From contig CALWKV010000023.1 of assembly GCA_944381355.1 (NCBI GenBank), forward strand, positions 1 to 37,743: a stretch of DNA of 37,743 nt. Direction: 5' to 3'. This DNA is from an uncultured Christensenellaceae bacterium. Its GTDB lineage: Bacteria; Bacillota; Clostridia; Christensenellales; UBA3700. Under the pieces are notes generated by a model that saw only the letters and a program-made list of their open reading frames with translations, did not search any database and had not been told where the DNA came from. Below are positions 4,732 to 34,526 of the stretch, one piece after another. A program made the translations under genes and the position numbers. Position 1 is the first letter of the stretch. Every line of letters begins with the position of its first letter.

Positions 4732-5028
4732 ATGAAAACTGTTTTGTATACGGTCAAGGATGGAGAAAGACTAAGTCAGATAGCCGAAAGATTTCACTCG
4801 GCGGAAGCCGCGATCAGGGCGAAGAACAGTCTCAGAGGAGAGCCGTTTGAAGGAATGAAACTTCTTATTGACGAACAGGAAGCGTTCGGATATACGGTGA
4901 GACCTTTCGACACGGTGGGTGTGATAGCCGCAAAATTCAATACGACAAGCGAAAAGATCAGGGAACTTAACGAAATAGACGAGGTATTTGTCGGGCAGAG
5001 GATACTTGTGCCGTCCGACAGCAGATGA
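4732..5028 (+). CDS. Small protein with two LysM domains
   Basis: YTVKDGERLSQIAERF and YTVRPFDTVGVIAAKFNTT...GQRILVP; GGGGAGG RBS before ATG 4732. Confidence 0.88.
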   Translation: MKTVLYTVKDGERLSQIAERFHSAEAAIRAKNSLRGEPFEGMKLLIDEQEAFGYTVRPFDTVGVIAAKFNTTSEKIRELNEIDEVFVGQRILVPSDSR

Positions 5029-5248
5029 TTTCTTTGACGATATGCAAAGAAGCCGACAAAGCCGATTGTCGGTGCGAATGGCAACTTTGCACATATCGGG
5101 CGCTTTCCTCGCGACGCTCTTACGATGACGCCGCTCTTTTATAGGTCAAGTTCTGCAAAACAGGCGTTGTCGCATTTTTCGCAGAAAAACGAGACATATG
5201 ACCGACATGCGTCAGGAATACCGTGCGAGCAGAGAGGAGCGTGTTGAG

Positions 5249-29034: not shown

Positions 29035-30531
29035 ATGAACTATATCAGCACTCGCGACAAAAGCGAGAAATGCAGCGGTGCAGAGGCCATCGTAAGAGGT
29101 CTCGCGCCGGATGGCGGACTATACGTCCCCGAGAGCCTTCCGAGGCTCGCTAAATAAGATTTTGAAAACCTTGCGAAAGAGGACTATCCTGCCCGTGCGG
29201 CTCGCGTCCTCTCGCTTTTGCTCAGCGACTACACGTACGAGGAGCTTCTTGACTATACGACCAAGGCGTATTCGCGTTTTTACGGCGACGATCCTTGTCC
29301 GCTCGTCAACGTCGACGAAGGCGTTTATGTGCTCGAACTGTGGCACGGCCCGACCTGCGCATTCAAAGACATGGCTTTGACCATGTTGCCGCATCTGCTG
29401 TCCGCCGCGAGGAAAAAGGTCGGTGAAAAGAACAAGACCCTGATCATGGTCGCGACTTCGGGCGATACCGGCAAGGCTGCGCTCGAGGGCTTCAAGGACG
29501 TCGAGGGCACCAATATCATAGTGTTCTATCCTTCCAAGGGCGTTTCGGATATGCAGAAATTGCAGATGAAGACCCAGACGGGAAGCAACGTCTGCGTATG
29601 CGCCATCGAAGGCAACTTCGACGATACGCAGAACGCGGTCAAGAATATCTTCGCAGACGAGAAGATCAACGAGGAAATACACTCTCTGGGATTCAATCTC
29701 TCGTCCGCCAACAGCATCAACTGGGGCAGACTCGCGCCGCAGATTGCCTACTATGTGTCGGCATACTGCGACCTTATAGAGTCGGGCAAGATAAAGTACG
29801 GCGACAAAGTCAACTTCTGTGTGCCTAGCGGCAACTTCGGCAATATACTCGCAGCGTACTACGCGATGCAGATGGGCGTGGGCATCAACAGACTGATCTG
29901 CGCGTCCAACGTCAATCACGTGCTGACAGACTTTTTCAAGACGGGCACATACGATATCAACAGAGAATTCCACAAGACGATCTCTCCGTCGATGGACATT
30001 CTTATTTCGTCCAATCTCGAAAGACTTCTGTTCGAGGTAAGCGGCAGAGACGACAAGCTGACCGCGGAGAGAATGAAAACGCTCAAGACTGCGGGCAAAT
30101 ACTCCGTCGGCGATAAAGAGCTGAATACGTTGCAGTCGCTGTTCTCCGTGGGCTACGCTGACGACGCGGCGACAAAGGAGACGATCGCGTTTGCGATGGA
30201 CGAGTTCGGTTATCTTATGGATACGCACACCGCAGTCGCATACGACGTGTATCTCGATTACGCGGAGAGCACCGGCGACGAGACTCCGACTGTCGTAGTC
30301 TCCACCGCCAATGCGTACAAGTTCCCCGCAGACGTCTACGAGGCTGTCAGCGGAGAGAGAGTGGACGACGCGTTCCTCGCCACCGAAAAACTCAACGCGG
30401 AGACGGGAGAGGAGATACCCGAGCCGCTCGACGGACTTAAGGACAGACCCGTGCGCTTCGAGGAAGTCATCGATCGTGCGGATATAGCGAAAAAAGTCGT
30501 TGAGTATTGCAGACAGGCGGCAAAAGAATGA
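29035..30531 (+). pseudogene. thrC: Threonine synthase with in-frame TAA at codon 41
   Basis: GAGGAG RBS and ATG 29035 give MNYISTR...GLAPDGGLYVP...LAK*DFENL, continuing in the same frame to ELWHGPTCAFKD (PLP Lys), ATSGDTG, SANSINWGRL and PSGNFGN. Stop at 29155-29157; could be a sequencing error. Confidence 0.85.
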
Positions 30532-30550
30532 CGCAAATAACGAAAAAATT

Positions 30551-30575
30551 TCCGACCGAAAGGTCGGATTTTTTT
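30551..30575 (+). terminator. Intrinsic terminator of thrC
   Basis: TCCGACC-GAAA-GGTCGGA plus 7 T. Confidence 0.85.
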
Positions 30576-30788
30576 ACCGCGATTTCAGCCCGCGACGACC
30601 TTAACTTGTTGCGTATCGTCTCGTCGGTGAGCTTTCGCCGTGTTGCGGGAGCGGACTACGGCGACAAAAAAAGGTCGTGCTTTGACGGCGGTCGGAGCGT
30701 TTACGGACTTGAGAATACGCGAGGCGCTTCGTCCCGAGCGTCCTTCCGCCGACGCGGATTCAAGAATGCGGCTTTGATAGGGTATATA

Positions 30789-30820
30789 AAAAACACGACC
30801 CGTGAAAGGGTCGCGTTTTT
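30789..30820 (-). terminator. Intrinsic terminator of the fprA operon
   Basis: Minus strand AAAAACGCGACCC-TTTCAC-GGGTCGTGTTTTT. Confidence 0.8.
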
Positions 30821-30857
30821 ATATTGTGGTGAATAAAAGAGTAAGTCGAAAGATCTT

Positions 30858-32060
30858 TTATTTTACTGCGCTTGCAAGCTGTCTGCCGTATTCTTTCGCG
30901 CACTCGAGATCTGCGTCGGTGGGTACGAAGCAGACTTTGAGTCCTTCGCCGACGACGGCAGTTTTAAGTGAGTTGAGTCTTGCGATGAGGTTTGGCACCG
31001 CCTCGCCGCTCCAGCCGTAAGAGCCGAATACCGCGACGGGCTTTTTGCGGCAGTTGATCGCGTCTGCACCCGTGAGCAGATCCCATATCGGCGGCACAGC
31101 GTCTGCGTTGAGAGTGGGAGAGCCGATCGCGCAGGCGTCGGACTTGTTGAACTTTTCACGCAGGTCCGCCATATCGTTTTTGATAATGTCGTAGGTCTCG
31201 CACGCCGCGTCGGGAATGACTTCCTGTACGCCCGCCTTTATCGCTTCGGCAAGTTTTGCGGTGCAGCCGTATGCCGAACAATAGAACACGGGGATAGTTT
31301 TGACCGCGTTTTTGACGACCTTGCTCCATTCGCGGTACTTTTCGAGCACGTAGGGGAGCTGTCCGTCCTTGGTCAGCACGGGACCGTGGCTGGGGCAAAC
31401 CGTCTCGAACGGGAATTTCGCTATCTTGCCCATACCTGCGACGACAAAGGGTTTGAAAGGTCCGAAAATCGCGTCGTAATAACCCTTGAAAGCCCTTCTG
31501 TAACCCTCGACGTCCTCGATATCCTTATCAATGATTTTCTTGCTGCTGTAATGAGATCCGAACACGTCGCAGCTGAACAAAACCTTTTCCTCCGGGCAGT
31601 AGGTGAACATACTGTCAGGCCAATGCAGGAGAGGAGAGGGCGCGAACGTCAGCGTCACGCCGCCGAGGTCGAGCACTTCGCCGTCCTTGACGGGTCTGGA
31701 ATTGAAGGGCGCGTTGACGATATTTTTCAGATAATTGAGTGCGACTGCCGTTGCAAGCACTGTGGCGTCGGGGCACAGTCTGAGTATGTCGGCGAGAGCG
31801 CCGCTGTGATCAGGCTCTGTATGGTTAAGGATTATATATTTGATATCCTTGGGGTCTGCGACTTCGCGGATATTTTTTTCGTATTCGCCTCCGAAGTCCG
31901 CGTGCGACGCTTCTACGAGCGCGACTGCGTCGCTGCCCTTGACGATATAAGAATTGTAGCTTGTGCCGAACTCCGTAGCCATTACGATGTCGAACACGCG
32001 CAGGTCGGGATTCTGAACTCCCACGCTGTAAATTTTGTCGGTGATCTTGTCTGCCGCCAT
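30858..32060 (-). CDS. fprA: Flavodiiron protein (FprA, A-type flavoprotein; O2/NO reductase)
   Basis: GTSYNSY, NHTEPDHSG, HWPDSM, SCD.FGSH and PSHGP diiron ligands; C-terminal flavodoxin domain (SAYGCT, GSPT, FGSYGWSGE). Confidence 0.95.
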   Translation of the reverse strand: MAADKITDKIYSVGVQNPDLRVFDIVMATEFGTSYNSYIVKGSDAVALVEASHADFGGEYEKNIREVADPKDIKYIILNHTEPDHSGALADILRLCPDATVLATAVALNYLKNIVNAPFNSRPVKDGEVLDLGGVTLTFAPSPLLHWPDSMFTYCPEEKVLFSCDVFGSHYSSKKIIDKDIEDVEGYRRAFKGYYDAIFGPFKPFVVAGMGKIAKFPFETVCPSHGPVLTKDGQLPYVLEKYREWSKVVKNAVKTIPVFYCSAYGCTAKLAEAIKAGVQEVIPDAACETYDIIKNDMADLREKFNKSDACAIGSPTLNADAVPPIWDLLTGADAINCRKKPVAVFGSYGWSGEAVPNLIARLNSLKTAVVGEGLKVCFVPTDADLECAKEYGRQLASAVK

Positions 32061-32081
32061 AGTATTTCTCCTCTTATGAAC

Positions 32082-32351
32082 TTAATTTATTCCGTGTTTA
32101 ACGCGGTCTCTTTCTTCTGCGCGCTTCGCGTTGTTGAAGCGGTCGAGAGTGCCGACGAGATAACCCGTGATGCGGCGTATTCTCTCAAACGGGACCGTGC
32201 CGAAAGTGTACTTCAGATCCACGTAGTCGCCGTCGACGTTTACGTCCATTGCGACGATGTTCTTGTCGGGGTATTTCTTCTTGCCGTAGTCGATATAAGC
32301 GTCGATTTCTTTCTGATCGATGTTGCCGCCGTTTACGTTAACTTTTACCAT
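32082..32351 (-). CDS. Stand-alone class III RNR (NrdD) glycyl-radical-domain protein, 89 aa
   Basis: C-terminal FERIRRITGYLVGTLDRFNNAKRAEERDRVKH is the NrdD glycyl-radical tail. Strong AAGGGAGG RBS and own ATG; no upstream nrdD remnant. Confidence 0.88.
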   Translation of the reverse strand: MVKVNVNGGNIDQKEIDAYIDYGKKKYPDKNIVAMDVNVDGDYVDLKYTFGTVPFERIRRITGYLVGTLDRFNNAKRAEERDRVKHGIN

Positions 32352-32405
32352 TGTTGTATCCTCCCTTAAATAGTGTTTAAAATCGCTTTACTTTTAACCG
32401 TTATT

Positions 32406-32450
32406 ACTATAACATATTTACGACAAATAATTATGTTGCATTTGCAACAT
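32406..32450 (-). promoter_or_regulatory. Crp/Fnr-type operator and extended -10 promoter of the mini-NrdD/fprA operon
   Basis: Palindrome ATGTTGCA-TT-TGCAACAT (32433-32450); minus-strand TGnTATAGT (32414-32406); palindrome centre at about -42. Confidence 0.75.
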
Positions 32451-32463
32451 TTTGAGGAAAAAT

Positions 32464-33114
32464 ATGGAATATAGAGAAATTAATTTGTTTGAAGGCATCT
32501 CCGAGGCGGACCTTGCGAGAATGATAACCTGCTTCGGTGCGAAGATAAAGCGTCTCAGAGAGGGAGAGGTGGTCTGCGATTACTCGGATACGGGCGACGA
32601 CGTGGGCGTCATGCTAGAGGGGAGTGCGTCGATGATACGCACGGACGAGAACGGTGAAGTGGCGGTAATGGAGCTGTTTTCGGATGGAGATATATTCGGA
32701 GAGGTGCTTGCGTTTTCCAATGCGGCGGGAGACAGCGTAAAAGTCGTAGCGGAAAGCGATTGCAAGGTTATGTTCATCAAATACGGGCAGATAACCAAGA
32801 GATGCGAAAACGCCTGCGAACATCACAGCAGACTGGTCTCCAATATGTTCGGACTCATTGCCAGAAAGACGCTTTCGCTGAGTCAGAGGATAGAGATACT
32901 TTCCAAAAAGACGACAAGGGAAAAGCTGATGTATTATTTCAATATTCTTGCAAAGAAGCATGGCAGAGAATTCGATCTGCCTATGTCGGTAACGCGCCTT
33001 GCGGAATATATATGCGCGGACAGGAGCGCGATGACGAGAGAACTTTCGCGTATGCAGGCGGACGGACTTGTCGAGATAAACAAAAAGAGAATAAAGCTGA
33101 AAAAAACCTTCTGA
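32464..33114 (+). CDS. Crp/Fnr family transcriptional regulator
   Basis: cNMP-binding-fold GDIFGE; C-terminal HTH LAEYICADRSAMTREL; CENACEHH Cys/His patch; divergent from the fprA operon. Confidence 0.93.
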   Translation: MEYREINLFEGISEADLARMITCFGAKIKRLREGEVVCDYSDTGDDVGVMLEGSASMIRTDENGEVAVMELFSDGDIFGEVLAFSNAAGDSVKVVAESDCKVMFIKYGQITKRCENACEHHSRLVSNMFGLIARKTLSLSQRIEILSKKTTREKLMYYFNILAKKHGREFDLPMSVTRLAEYICADRSAMTRELSRMQADGLVEINKKRIKLKKTF

Positions 33115-33134
33115 CTACATCGTCGCAATATGCA

Positions 33135-33168
33135 AAAAACCCTTTCCCGTGTTCAGGAAAGGGTTTTT
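33135..33168. terminator. Bidirectional terminator
   Basis: AAAAACCCTTTCC-8 nt-GGAAAGGGTTTTT. Confidence 0.85.
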
Positions 33169-33188
33169 CTATGCGGCATGTCCGACCG

Positions 33189-34526
33189 TCAGATCGCCGT
33201 GAAATGTGCCGATTCCGCAGTTATGGTCACAGCTACGGGCTGTCCGTCTCTGAGCACGTTGACCGTGACGGAGTCTCCTGCTTTGACGCCCATCAGAGTC
33301 TCCTGCGCCTTGTAGAACGCGTCTATCTTCACGGCTTCGCCGCCGTTGACGGATATGGATACGAGCACGTCTCCTTCGATGAGTTTGCCGTAAGCCGCCG
33401 TGCCTTCTCCGACTGAATATATCTTGTACGTGTAAGCGGTGCGTATCACGCCGTTTTCGTCAACGTACGTGCTGATGTCGACCACGTCTTCGGCATTGTT
33501 GGGGTATGTGTTTGCAGCGGCGGGACGGCTTATGCCGAGGACAAAACGCTGCCCGCCGTTTTCAATGATGTTGTCGGCTACCGCAACCGCAAGGGAAGCC
33601 GGAATCGCGTAACATACGTTGTCGTCGGTCGTGTCGGAGGATTTTGCGTCCGAAATCCCCATAAGCTCGCCGTATTCGTTGAACATACCGCCTCCGGAGT
33701 TTCCGCTGTTGAGCGCCGCATCGGTGCGGTAAACTCTTACGCTGGAAGAATATTTGGTCGCGATATATTCCGTTTCGACCGAAACTATGCCTGACGTTAC
33801 CGAGAACGTGTAGAGAGAGGGCGTTCCGATTGCAAAAGTTGCCTGACCGACCGTAGGAGTCGACGTGTTTACTTTAACCGCGGCGACCGTGTCCGTGAGG
33901 AACATGTCCGATTGGGCTTCTATGACCGCGATGTCGTTGCTCCGCGAAGCGCCGACTACGGTAGCGGTTATCAGATCCTCCTCTTGTACCTGATTGTAAA
34001 GATAAACTTTTATGTCGTTGCTGTAGCCGCCCGTCGAGCTGTCGAAAATAACGTGATAGTTGGTAATGATATATGCCTTGTTTTCGCTGAGCTTGTATAT
34101 TACGCCCGAGCCGGACGACGTTGAACGCGCATTTGTACAGATTATTCCGACAGAGCTTTTGAGAGCCTGCTGAACCGTGGACGTTATGCTGGGGGTGACG
34201 TCAAGTCCGAGAGACGCATAGAAATCTTCGATTGTCGATCTCGGATTGTTTTCAAGATAATAGTTTACAAGTTCATCGAGGGTAAAAGCGTCTTTTCCGT
34301 CAGTACCGTTGACACCGTCGGTACCGTCTTTTCCGTCAGTGCCGTCTGTGCCTTTCAGACTTTCGAGCCATTCGGCTTCAGTTCCTTCAAATCCGTTCTT
34401 TACTGCGATGTCGTATGCCGAGTCACCTTTGGTCTCCGTCGATAAGCACGACGCCGTCAAGGTCGCCACGAGCGCCGTTATCGCAATTATTATTACGATG
34501 CCGATCAGAGTTTTGCGTGTTTTCAT
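33189..34526 (-). CDS. HtrA/DegP-like trypsin-family serine protease with PDZ domain, probable lipoprotein, short collagen-like repeat
   Basis: Catalytic triad TNYHV / DIAV / NSGNSGG; C-terminal PDZ (GDV...ING...GDSVTV.V.R.G); LTASC lipobox-like site; GTDGTDGKDGTDGVNGTDGKD repeat. Confidence 0.9.
   Translation of the reverse strand: MKTRKTLIGIVIIIAITALVATLTASCLSTETKGDSAYDIAVKNGFEGTEAEWLESLKGTDGTDGKDGTDGVNGTDGKDAFTLDELVNYYLENNPRSTIEDFYASLGLDVTPSITSTVQQALKSSVGIICTNARSTSSGSGVIYKLSENKAYIITNYHVIFDSSTGGYSNDIKVYLYNQVQEEDLITATVVGASRSNDIAVIEAQSDMFLTDTVAAVKVNTSTPTVGQATFAIGTPSLYTFSVTSGIVSVETEYIATKYSSSVRVYRTDAALNSGNSGGGMFNEYGELMGISDAKSSDTTDDNVCYAIPASLAVAVADNIIENGGQRFVLGISRPAAANTYPNNAEDVVDISTYVDENGVIRTAYTYKIYSVGEGTAAYGKLIEGDVLVSISVNGGEAVKIDAFYKAQETLMGVKAGDSVTVNVLRDGQPVAVTITAESAHFTAI

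Follow-up and report, generated by a model that had tools for sequence, protein, structure and literature searches.

The systems most similar to the one described here are the spare parts of pyruvate formate-lyase (PFL), namely Escherichia coli GrcA/YfiD and the phage T4 protein Y06I. These are small proteins having only a glycyl-radical tail, found beside the intact enzyme and presumably charged by that enzyme's activase, and the use proposed for them is the replacement of a tail cleaved by oxygen (PMC13450708, PMC8683613). According to a June 2026 review, no enzymes other than formate lyases are known to have spare parts, and their existence beyond PFL is left open (PMC13450708); the second paper allows that such proteins may exist for other glycyl radical enzymes (PMC8683613). 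We report here on an 89-residue protein, mini-NrdD, which carries the radical tail of NrdD, the class III ribonucleotide reductase (RNR). It is encoded in the 37,743-nucleotide contig CALWKV010000023.1 (assembly GCA_944381355.1, uncultured Christensenellaceae bacterium, UBA3700), the whole of which is called the window below. We describe its sequence anatomy, the conservation of its family, its gene contexts, the tail-less NrdD enzymes that accompany some family members and a conserved operator beside the gene. From comparative sequence analysis we rate mini-NrdD as a candidate autonomous glycyl-radical cofactor for class III RNR, from a family whose members probably also occur as an obligate subunit.

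Like GrcA/YfiD and Y06I, mini-NrdD is small, is limited to the tail as far as recognisable enzyme sequence is concerned, stands beside an intact enzyme and is a candidate for the same use. It is not, however, homologous to them: its tail is that of NrdD rather than PFL, and a Pfam scan at E ≤ 1 returned NRDD and one chance match with no PFL-type Gly_radical domain (PF01228). Its N-terminal half is predicted to be folded, whereas that of YfiD is described as disordered in the review (PMC13450708). Members of its family are also found as the sole tail of tail-less enzymes, an arrangement not seen described for PFL in the portions available. The C-terminal domain of full-length NrdD (PF13597, TIGR02487) has a homologous tail, with the RxxGY motif and the helix that follows it, while the barrel, ATP-cone and two CxxC pairs of that enzyme are absent from mini-NrdD, where a different domain of about 54 residues is present instead.

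The split considered below parts the radical tail from the barrel; the split class II RNR NrdJa/NrdJb of Pseudomonas aeruginosa belongs to another class and relies on another cofactor, reportedly not a glycyl radical. That enzyme provides a precedent for an RNR composed of two polypeptides (PMC4520616). Our literature search found neither a spare part nor a tail/barrel split described for NrdD, although most subscription-journal papers lay outside it and absence from print is unproven. It thereby agrees, within that scope, with the first-pass annotation of this DNA, made from the sequence alone, which had known of no characterised spare part for class III RNR.

Sequence anatomy of mini-NrdD

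The mini-NrdD reading frame (Table 1) is intact and encodes no cysteine, and only its C-terminal part resembles a known protein. PF13597 (NRDD) matches residues 55-86, corresponding solely to profile positions 533-562 of 562, with 30.1 bits against a cut-off of 26.2. Three NCBIfam NrdD models likewise match the tail only, at 29-46 bits and far under their cut-offs of 326-764. This segment contains the RxxGY radical motif and the conserved helix found at the C-terminus of NrdD. Both the confinement of the match to the very end of the profile and the lack of cysteine show that the ten-stranded α/β barrel with its catalytic cysteines is missing. So too is the Zn-ribbon, composed of two CxxC pairs, which precedes the tail in NrdD and is present in the NrdD of this genome. 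For residues 1-54 no Pfam or NCBIfam family was found at E ≤ 1. The first-pass annotation had drawn the same picture of an intact, Cys-free frame with a strong ribosome-binding site and an NrdD tail at its end, preceded by an unrecognised N-terminus of around 50 residues in place of the Zn-binding CxxC pairs; the list of open reading frames, the GGGAGG element, PF13597 and the lack of any family for the first 54 or so residues all bear it out.

The tail of mini-NrdD is identical in 33 of 33 residues to that of the full-length NrdD encoded elsewhere in the same genome, so that the match to NrdD is not a chance one. At the codon level the two tails differ by 12 synonymous and 0 non-synonymous changes, and the mini-NrdD tail is therefore neither a recent copy nor decaying.

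Class III RNR in the genome of the window

The assembly, in 123 contigs and 78% complete, contains a full-length nrdD of 778 amino acids on contig C97, in which both CxxC pairs and the enzyme's own tail are present; we call this form type 1 (RITGYLVG tail). Directly downstream, and overlapping the nrdD end, lies nrdG (171 amino acids). The genome thus holds, as the first-pass annotation had proposed should be verified, an nrdG and a complete nrdD with its Zn-ribbon cysteines and a tail comparable with that of the small protein. This arrangement of a small stand-alone radical-tail protein beside intact nrdD and nrdG, located here on another contig of the assembly, recurs in a relative whose genome is a single contig (G010). 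No class I or class II RNR large subunit was found in the 78% of the genome that is represented.

A second NrdD type is encoded on contig C83 (L006 1-831 and 1078-1854, - strand), where it is cut by the contig end and has a 258-residue radical S-adenosylmethionine (SAM) activase upstream. In relatives it is complete (profile positions 1-562; L058, L059), about 791 residues long, with a tail unlike that of type 1 and a thioredoxin-like end containing CPxC. A split enzyme was considered for the window's genome and rejected, type-1 NrdD retaining its own tail on C97 and the second type being complete in relatives. Judged by sequence and gene content, mini-NrdD in this genome is a second and probably separately regulated copy of the radical tail, NrdD keeping its own.

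NrdD enzymes that lack a tail

NrdD was checked in 29 mini-bearing genomes outside the genus, five further mini-bearing genomes being left out. In 21 of the 29 NrdD has kept its own tail. In the other 8 the PF13597 match ends at position 531-541 of 562 and the reading frame stops soon after the Zn-ribbon, leaving the mini-NrdD as the only tail found. Five of these genomes belong to one family (G506, G801, G758, G639, G463) and three to three other families (G249, G404, G687); the assemblies of three of the 8 consist of one or two contigs. A search for class I/II RNR (PF02867) in five of the tail-less genomes gave no match in four (G801, G758, G249, G404) and one match in G506, so that a tail-less NrdD plus mini-NrdD is the only RNR found in those four genomes.

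In G687, NrdD (L116 461-2737, + strand) ends exactly at the position of the radical glycine, with an intact nrdG downstream, while two congeners, G778 and G636 (loci L119 and L121), have intact NrdD. Either the tail was lost very recently and mini-NrdD makes the loss tolerable, or the assembly is in error at this point. Fused, split and extra-copy states are found within single families and, in the case of G687 against G778 and G636, once within a genus. We read the distribution as suggesting natural complementation, in which the tail of NrdD itself can be lost where mini-NrdD exists. That a split enzyme might take the place of a spare part had been named in the first-pass annotation as grounds for abandoning its proposal; this does not apply to the genome of the window, where the NrdD tail is present, but does hold in these 8 other genomes.

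A second kind of split NrdD was also observed. Here nrdD continues past the Zn-ribbon for only a short, conserved extension; next come a separate tail-only reading frame of 46-73 residues without the N-terminal domain (PF13597 positions 533-562) and then nrdG (L052, L080, L081, L082, L086, L088, L089; also L085, L087, L090). The order nrdD-tail-nrdG is complete in 7 loci of several families, and no other tail was found in those genomes of the class sample described below. These could be natural two-piece enzymes; sequencing frameshifts are unlikely to account for them because the nrdD extension is conserved. One genome, G423, has two extra tail-only frames of 62-63 residues (L083 ~4977-5168, - strand; L084 ~4962-5150, - strand) besides its own split nrdD locus (L085). 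By eye the neighbours of these extra frames are phage-like, comprising a recombinase-like, a methyltransferase-like and a long tail-fibre-like frame, which recalls Y06I of T4 for PFL.

A conserved family of short proteins

Homologues were sought by a word-indexed search limited to proteins of 48-156 amino acids. The best 120 of at least 8000 matches to mini-NrdD are 83-109 residues long and cover 96-100% of the query. An exhaustive search of representatives at 50% identity gave 2125 matches at E ≤ 0.001, of which 765 reach E ≤ 1e-10; lengths of 80-119 residues are found for 116 of the best 150 of these representative matches. An alignment of 90 family members shows Gly63 and nine other tail residues to be invariant throughout, and in the N-terminal domain Glu15 and Tyr19 are conserved in at least 90% of the same 90. 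Within the genus, the ratio of non-synonymous to synonymous substitution rates (dN/dS), estimated from 13 sequences (78 pairs), comes to about 0.105 in residues 1-54 and about 0.029 in residues 55-88, rough figures since dS is saturated in many pairs. The near-constant length, the conserved N-terminus and the evidence of purifying selection are what the first-pass annotation had looked for in a genuine family, and rule out the variable-length, decaying nrdD fragments that it had named as the contrary outcome.

Mini-NrdD is present in 12 of 14 other genomes of the genus. Elsewhere in the sample of the family and order, G019 and G035 were the only genomes with a match. In a class sample of 400 genomes, each at least 90% complete apart from the window's own, a narrow model gave full-length matches in 10 further genomes. 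In a phylum sample of 401 genomes, a broader model gave matches starting within its first 12 positions in 22 further genomes. Database entries for relatives of mini-NrdD are labelled 'hypothetical protein', and the nearest ESM Atlas clusters are 'hypothetical protein' entries of about 91 residues with PF13597, which we take as a lead only. In a phage collection 15 records match; query coverage reaches 80% or more in two of them, both short unannotated fragments named 'Bacteriophage sp.', and in the named Clostridioides phages it is solely a full-length nrdD that accounts for the match.

In many family members the conserved helix is followed by a short Cys-rich C-terminus, whose last 3-8 residues contain CC, CxC or CxxC (P0043, P0065, P0121-P0124, P0130 and others; L070, L071, L072, L074). 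The protein of the window lacks it. Tail-less NrdD proteins at L098 and L101 end in CC-containing peptides.

Gene neighbourhood

In the window the mini-NrdD gene shares its strand with the gene of a flavodiiron protein, the presumed second member of its operon, and diverges from that of a Crp/Fnr-family regulator (Table 1), as the first-pass annotation had stated; the distance of 21 nucleotides it gave between mini-NrdD and fprA is that between the mini-NrdD stop and the flavodiiron ATG (32061-32081), and Pfam confirms the domains. The flavodiiron protein has the class A architecture, with a diiron domain of the metallo-β-lactamase (ODP) type (PF19583/PF00753) at residues 34-226 followed by flavodoxin PF00258 at residues 258-386, and its best NCBIfam models are those of flavorubredoxin-type nitric oxide (NO) reductases, which it matches below their cut-offs. 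The pairing of mini-NrdD with the flavodiiron gene is conserved in 13 of 13 mini-bearing genomes of the genus (the window plus 12 loci).

Gene context was counted over 33 loci from 25 genera, with neighbours identified through Pfam. In 8 genera mini-NrdD is flanked by nrdD and nrdG or immediately precedes nrdG; it accompanies Crp/Fnr and flavodiiron genes, with or without rubredoxin, in 3 genera of 2 families; and neither arrangement is seen in 14 genera. The first-pass annotation had proposed looking for linkage to fprA, rubrerythrin, hcp and Crp/Fnr genes; the linkage to flavodiiron, rubredoxin and Crp/Fnr genes is found together with the more frequent linkage to nrdD/nrdG. Two orders are seen in the flavodiiron loci: Crp diverging from mini-flavodiiron in the window's genus, and Crp diverging from rubredoxin-flavodiiron-mini in two genera of another family. 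Three genomes have the order nrdD-mini-nrdG-nrdR with an intact NrdD, which suggests co-expression with NrdD rather than stress-specific expression.

Also syntenic in the genus is a 445-residue frame at 33189-34526 of the window (- strand), whose translation has collagen-like GTDG/GKDG triplets near the N-terminus, then an apparent trypsin-like serine protease and a PDZ-like end.

Table 1. Positions of features of the mini-NrdD locus in the window
Feature	Position	Strand	Remarks
Flavodiiron protein gene, 400 aa	30858..32060	-	PF19583/PF00753 + PF00258; presumed same operon as mini-NrdD
mini-NrdD gene, 89 aa, ATG start	32082..32351 (including stop)	-	From list of open reading frames; tail-only PF13597 match; family of ~85-115 aa
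Glycyl-radical tail, residues 55-89, RxxGY motif	32085..32189	-	Identity to NrdD tail; hhalign
Gly63 codon, presumed radical glycine	32163..32165	-	Aligns with Gly748 of the genome's NrdD
N-terminal domain, residues 1-54	32190..32351	-	Predicted strand-helix-strand-strand; no known family
Shine-Dalgarno GGGAGG of mini-NrdD	32360..32365	-	8 nt before ATG; read from sequence
-10-like TATAGT	32406..32411	-	30.5 nt from palindrome centre; geometry putatively class-II-like
16-bp palindrome TGTTGCA-WW-TGCAACA	32434..32449		Presumed operator of the Crp/Fnr regulator
Crp/Fnr-family regulator	32464..33114	+	PF00027 + PF13545 above cut-offs; divergent from mini-NrdD

The regulator and its presumed operator

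By our own reading of the sequence the regulator probably starts at the ATG at 32464 and not at the listed TTG at 32452. It combines a β-barrel of the cNMP-binding type (PF00027) with a C-terminal Crp-type helix-turn-helix (HTH_Crp_2, PF13545). Four cysteines are conserved in 6 of 6 aligned orthologues from two families (L038, L048, L070, L071 and L072 among the loci): the first lies close to the N-terminus and the second in the barrel, while the other two form a CxxxC that immediately precedes the dimerisation helix. The regulator may be a candidate for Fe-S, redox, NO or thiol sensing, with an unfamiliar arrangement of cysteines.

The palindrome between the divergent genes is invariant in 13 of 13 sequences from the genus while its flanks vary, and an identical palindrome is present in 3 of 3 Crp-(rubredoxin-flavodiiron-mini) intergenic regions of the other family, where the regulators are 43-44% identical. 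The assembly has one exact copy and 3 sites with one mismatch, as against 18 for a reversed control pattern; no regulon could be defined from these sites. A spacing of about 30 nucleotides between operator and -10 element is the geometry of promoters activated in class II fashion by Crp/Fnr proteins. The putative -10 element of the window conforms to it, and by our own count the palindrome centre lies 29.5 nucleotides from a TACAAT -10 element in two of the three loci of the other family. A consensus scan found no sigma-70 promoter in 30500-33300, an outcome that would fit a promoter in which an activator site stands in for the -35 element. A scan of 30000-34000 for Rfam families was negative. 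Presence of the palindrome both in the genus and in another family points to probable co-regulation of mini-NrdD with O2/NO detoxification.

In three metatranscriptome runs, drawn from two studies, contigs cover stretches of the flavodiiron gene at no less than 99%. Over mini-NrdD there is only a 42-nucleotide piece with 4 differences, perhaps from the NrdD of another organism, and DNA can occur in such libraries.

Structure prediction and tail co-variation

AlphaFold2, run with the family alignment, predicts a strand-helix-strand-strand fold for residues 1-50 of mini-NrdD with a predicted local distance difference test score (pLDDT) of 86-92, whereas the tail has low confidence (57-70), which is expected for a segment needing a partner. 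Foldseek found no structure in the PDB that matches the N-terminal domain at E ≤ 0.001; the highest-ranked ones, ribosome hibernation factors among them, have template modelling (TM) scores of 0.2-0.4 and were not used. An origin of the domain from the last β-α-β unit of NrdD, suspected by eye, was not supported: hhalign aligns the tail of mini-NrdD with that of NrdD at a probability of 99.6 over 40 columns and leaves the N-terminal domain unaligned.

Docking of mini-NrdD to residues 1-747 of NrdD, using custom alignments, gave an ipSAE interface score of 0.60 (runs 0.60, 0.49 and 0.65) compared with 0.00 for the best of 3 controls, a comparison confounded by the solved NrdD structures. At least 62% of contacts agree between runs and partner pLDDT is at least 68. 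Of 80 solved complexes, 58 reach the pass mark employed, as do 2 of 110 mismatched pairs; scores of 0.60 or less are found for only 7 of the 80 solved complexes, and for both of the mismatches that passed.

Cognate mini-NrdD and NrdD tails share 28.75 of 33 residues on average as against 26.9 for non-cognate pairs (one genome each from 8 genera; permutation p=0.0007). The effect is modest, and fits a shared partner.

Functional interpretation

We consider it very probable that the family is a trans-acting glycyl-radical subunit of NrdD which is charged by NrdG. The fuller statement, that it is such a subunit and that in the window's genome it replaces tails destroyed by oxygen, is one towards which we incline with more reserve; rescue of NrdD after oxygen damage is a plausible inference. 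The first-pass annotation had called the protein the GrcA analogue for NrdD. Intact nrdD and nrdG, a conserved family and linkage to scavenging genes speak for that analogy, but 'spare part' would describe only one use of a family which, given the tail-less NrdD enzymes, appears to be in the first place a trans-acting radical subunit.

Mechanistically, the radical SAM enzyme NrdG would abstract a hydrogen from Gly63 in the flexible tail of mini-NrdD, to which the mini-nrdG and nrdD-mini-nrdG arrangements of 8 genera lend indirect support, and the charged tail would then fill the site in the NrdD barrel normally held by NrdD's own C-terminal tail, so that catalysis could start in trans. The folded N-terminal domain would take over from the Zn-ribbon the part of a handle for the tail. 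Acting in this way, mini-NrdD would be the sole tail available to the tail-less NrdD of several Bacillota lineages. In the window's genome it is presumably co-transcribed with the flavodiiron O2/NO reductase from a promoter under the divergent Crp/Fnr-type regulator, probably with induction by O2 or NO, and its most likely use there would be the restoration of NrdD molecules whose tail oxygen has cleaved at the glycyl radical.

Several observations weigh against this account. Two genomes of the genus, G002 (91% complete) and G005 (95% complete), lack mini-NrdD, which is hence dispensable in some relatives; G002 has type-1 NrdD all the same, while type-1 NrdD is missing from G005 as well. In the 14 of 25 genera with neither nrd nor flavodiiron neighbours, gene context lends the account no help. 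In G249 mini-NrdD sits in a Crp/rubredoxin/flavodiiron locus although the NrdD there is tail-less, so that linkage to scavenging genes is not specific to a 'spare' role. The RNA libraries provide no usable evidence on transcription of mini-NrdD, either for or against. The docking amounts to weak support and its pass may reflect no more than likeness to solved structures of full-length NrdD with the tail in place, and tail co-variation could come from gene conversion.

The alternative that survives best, though we hold it unlikely, is that mini-NrdD serves routinely as a second radical subunit and has nothing in particular to do with damage. It would be used beside NrdD's own tail, for instance in activating an NrdD whose tail is unactivated, or would represent redundancy between fused and split states, and its proximity to the flavodiiron gene would reflect general anaerobic or redox regulation. 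Such a role accords with the 8 genomes in which the family supplies the sole tail, G249 with its flavodiiron/Crp context among them, with the coexistence of fused, split and extra-copy states in single families and once in a genus, and with the three nrdD-mini-nrdG-nrdR loci where NrdD is intact. GrcA, moreover, is reported to restore activity to inactive full-length PFL in vivo. It accords less well with the window's genus, where mini-NrdD lies outside the nrd operon with a dedicated regulator and an O2/NO scavenger in 13 of 13 genomes, and a tail supplied in trans should normally lose out to the enzyme's own cis tail as long as the latter is present and undamaged.

Considerably less probable is a role as a decoy or buffer for the activase, in which mini-NrdD would compete with NrdD for NrdG, or else store or quench the radical, lowering or timing class III RNR activity under O2 or NO. 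The perfect copy of the NrdG substrate motif, the co-regulation with stress genes and the modelled flexibility of the tail are all compatible with this, but tail-less NrdD enzymes with no other tail or other RNR found require the family to be catalytic rather than inhibitory, and the tail co-variation outside the activase motif fits docking to the barrel. That the frame is a non-functional leftover of nrdD duplication which happens still to be open, as the match to only the last 30 NrdD profile positions and the label 'hypothetical protein' of its relatives might suggest, is scarcely credible given its strong ribosome-binding site, a near-constant length and conserved N-terminal domain across a phylum-wide sample, dN/dS of 0.03-0.1 and 12 synonymous to 0 non-synonymous differences from the NrdD tail.

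Replacement of damaged tails by a trans-acting subunit can be placed within a wider proposal, on which we are evenly divided, of an exchangeable radical cartridge. Class III RNR would in many Bacillota be in effect a two-component enzyme, with a protein made of an N-terminal handle and an NrdD tail being charged by NrdG and plugging into the barrel. This would have allowed repeated loss of the tail from NrdD itself. In the window's genome the same protein would serve as a regulated replacement, coupled by a Crp/Fnr-type sensor to the scavenging of O2 and NO, and it would constitute the first spare-part system outside PFL.

Implications

Strict anaerobes that rely on NrdD alone irreversibly lose deoxynucleoside triphosphate synthesis once oxygen cleaves the activated enzyme. 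The mini-NrdD family offers a concrete and widespread spare-part candidate for this most essential of glycyl radical enzymes, and the NrdDs that naturally lack a tail lend themselves directly to testing activation in trans. Should the account given here be true, it would explain thousands of small reading frames of gut Bacillota that are labelled 'hypothetical' or mislabelled 'anaerobic ribonucleoside-triphosphate reductase'. Their annotation would be corrected, and a tail-less nrdD would no longer need to be taken for a pseudogene. It would, finally, bear on the oxygen tolerance of gut anaerobes.

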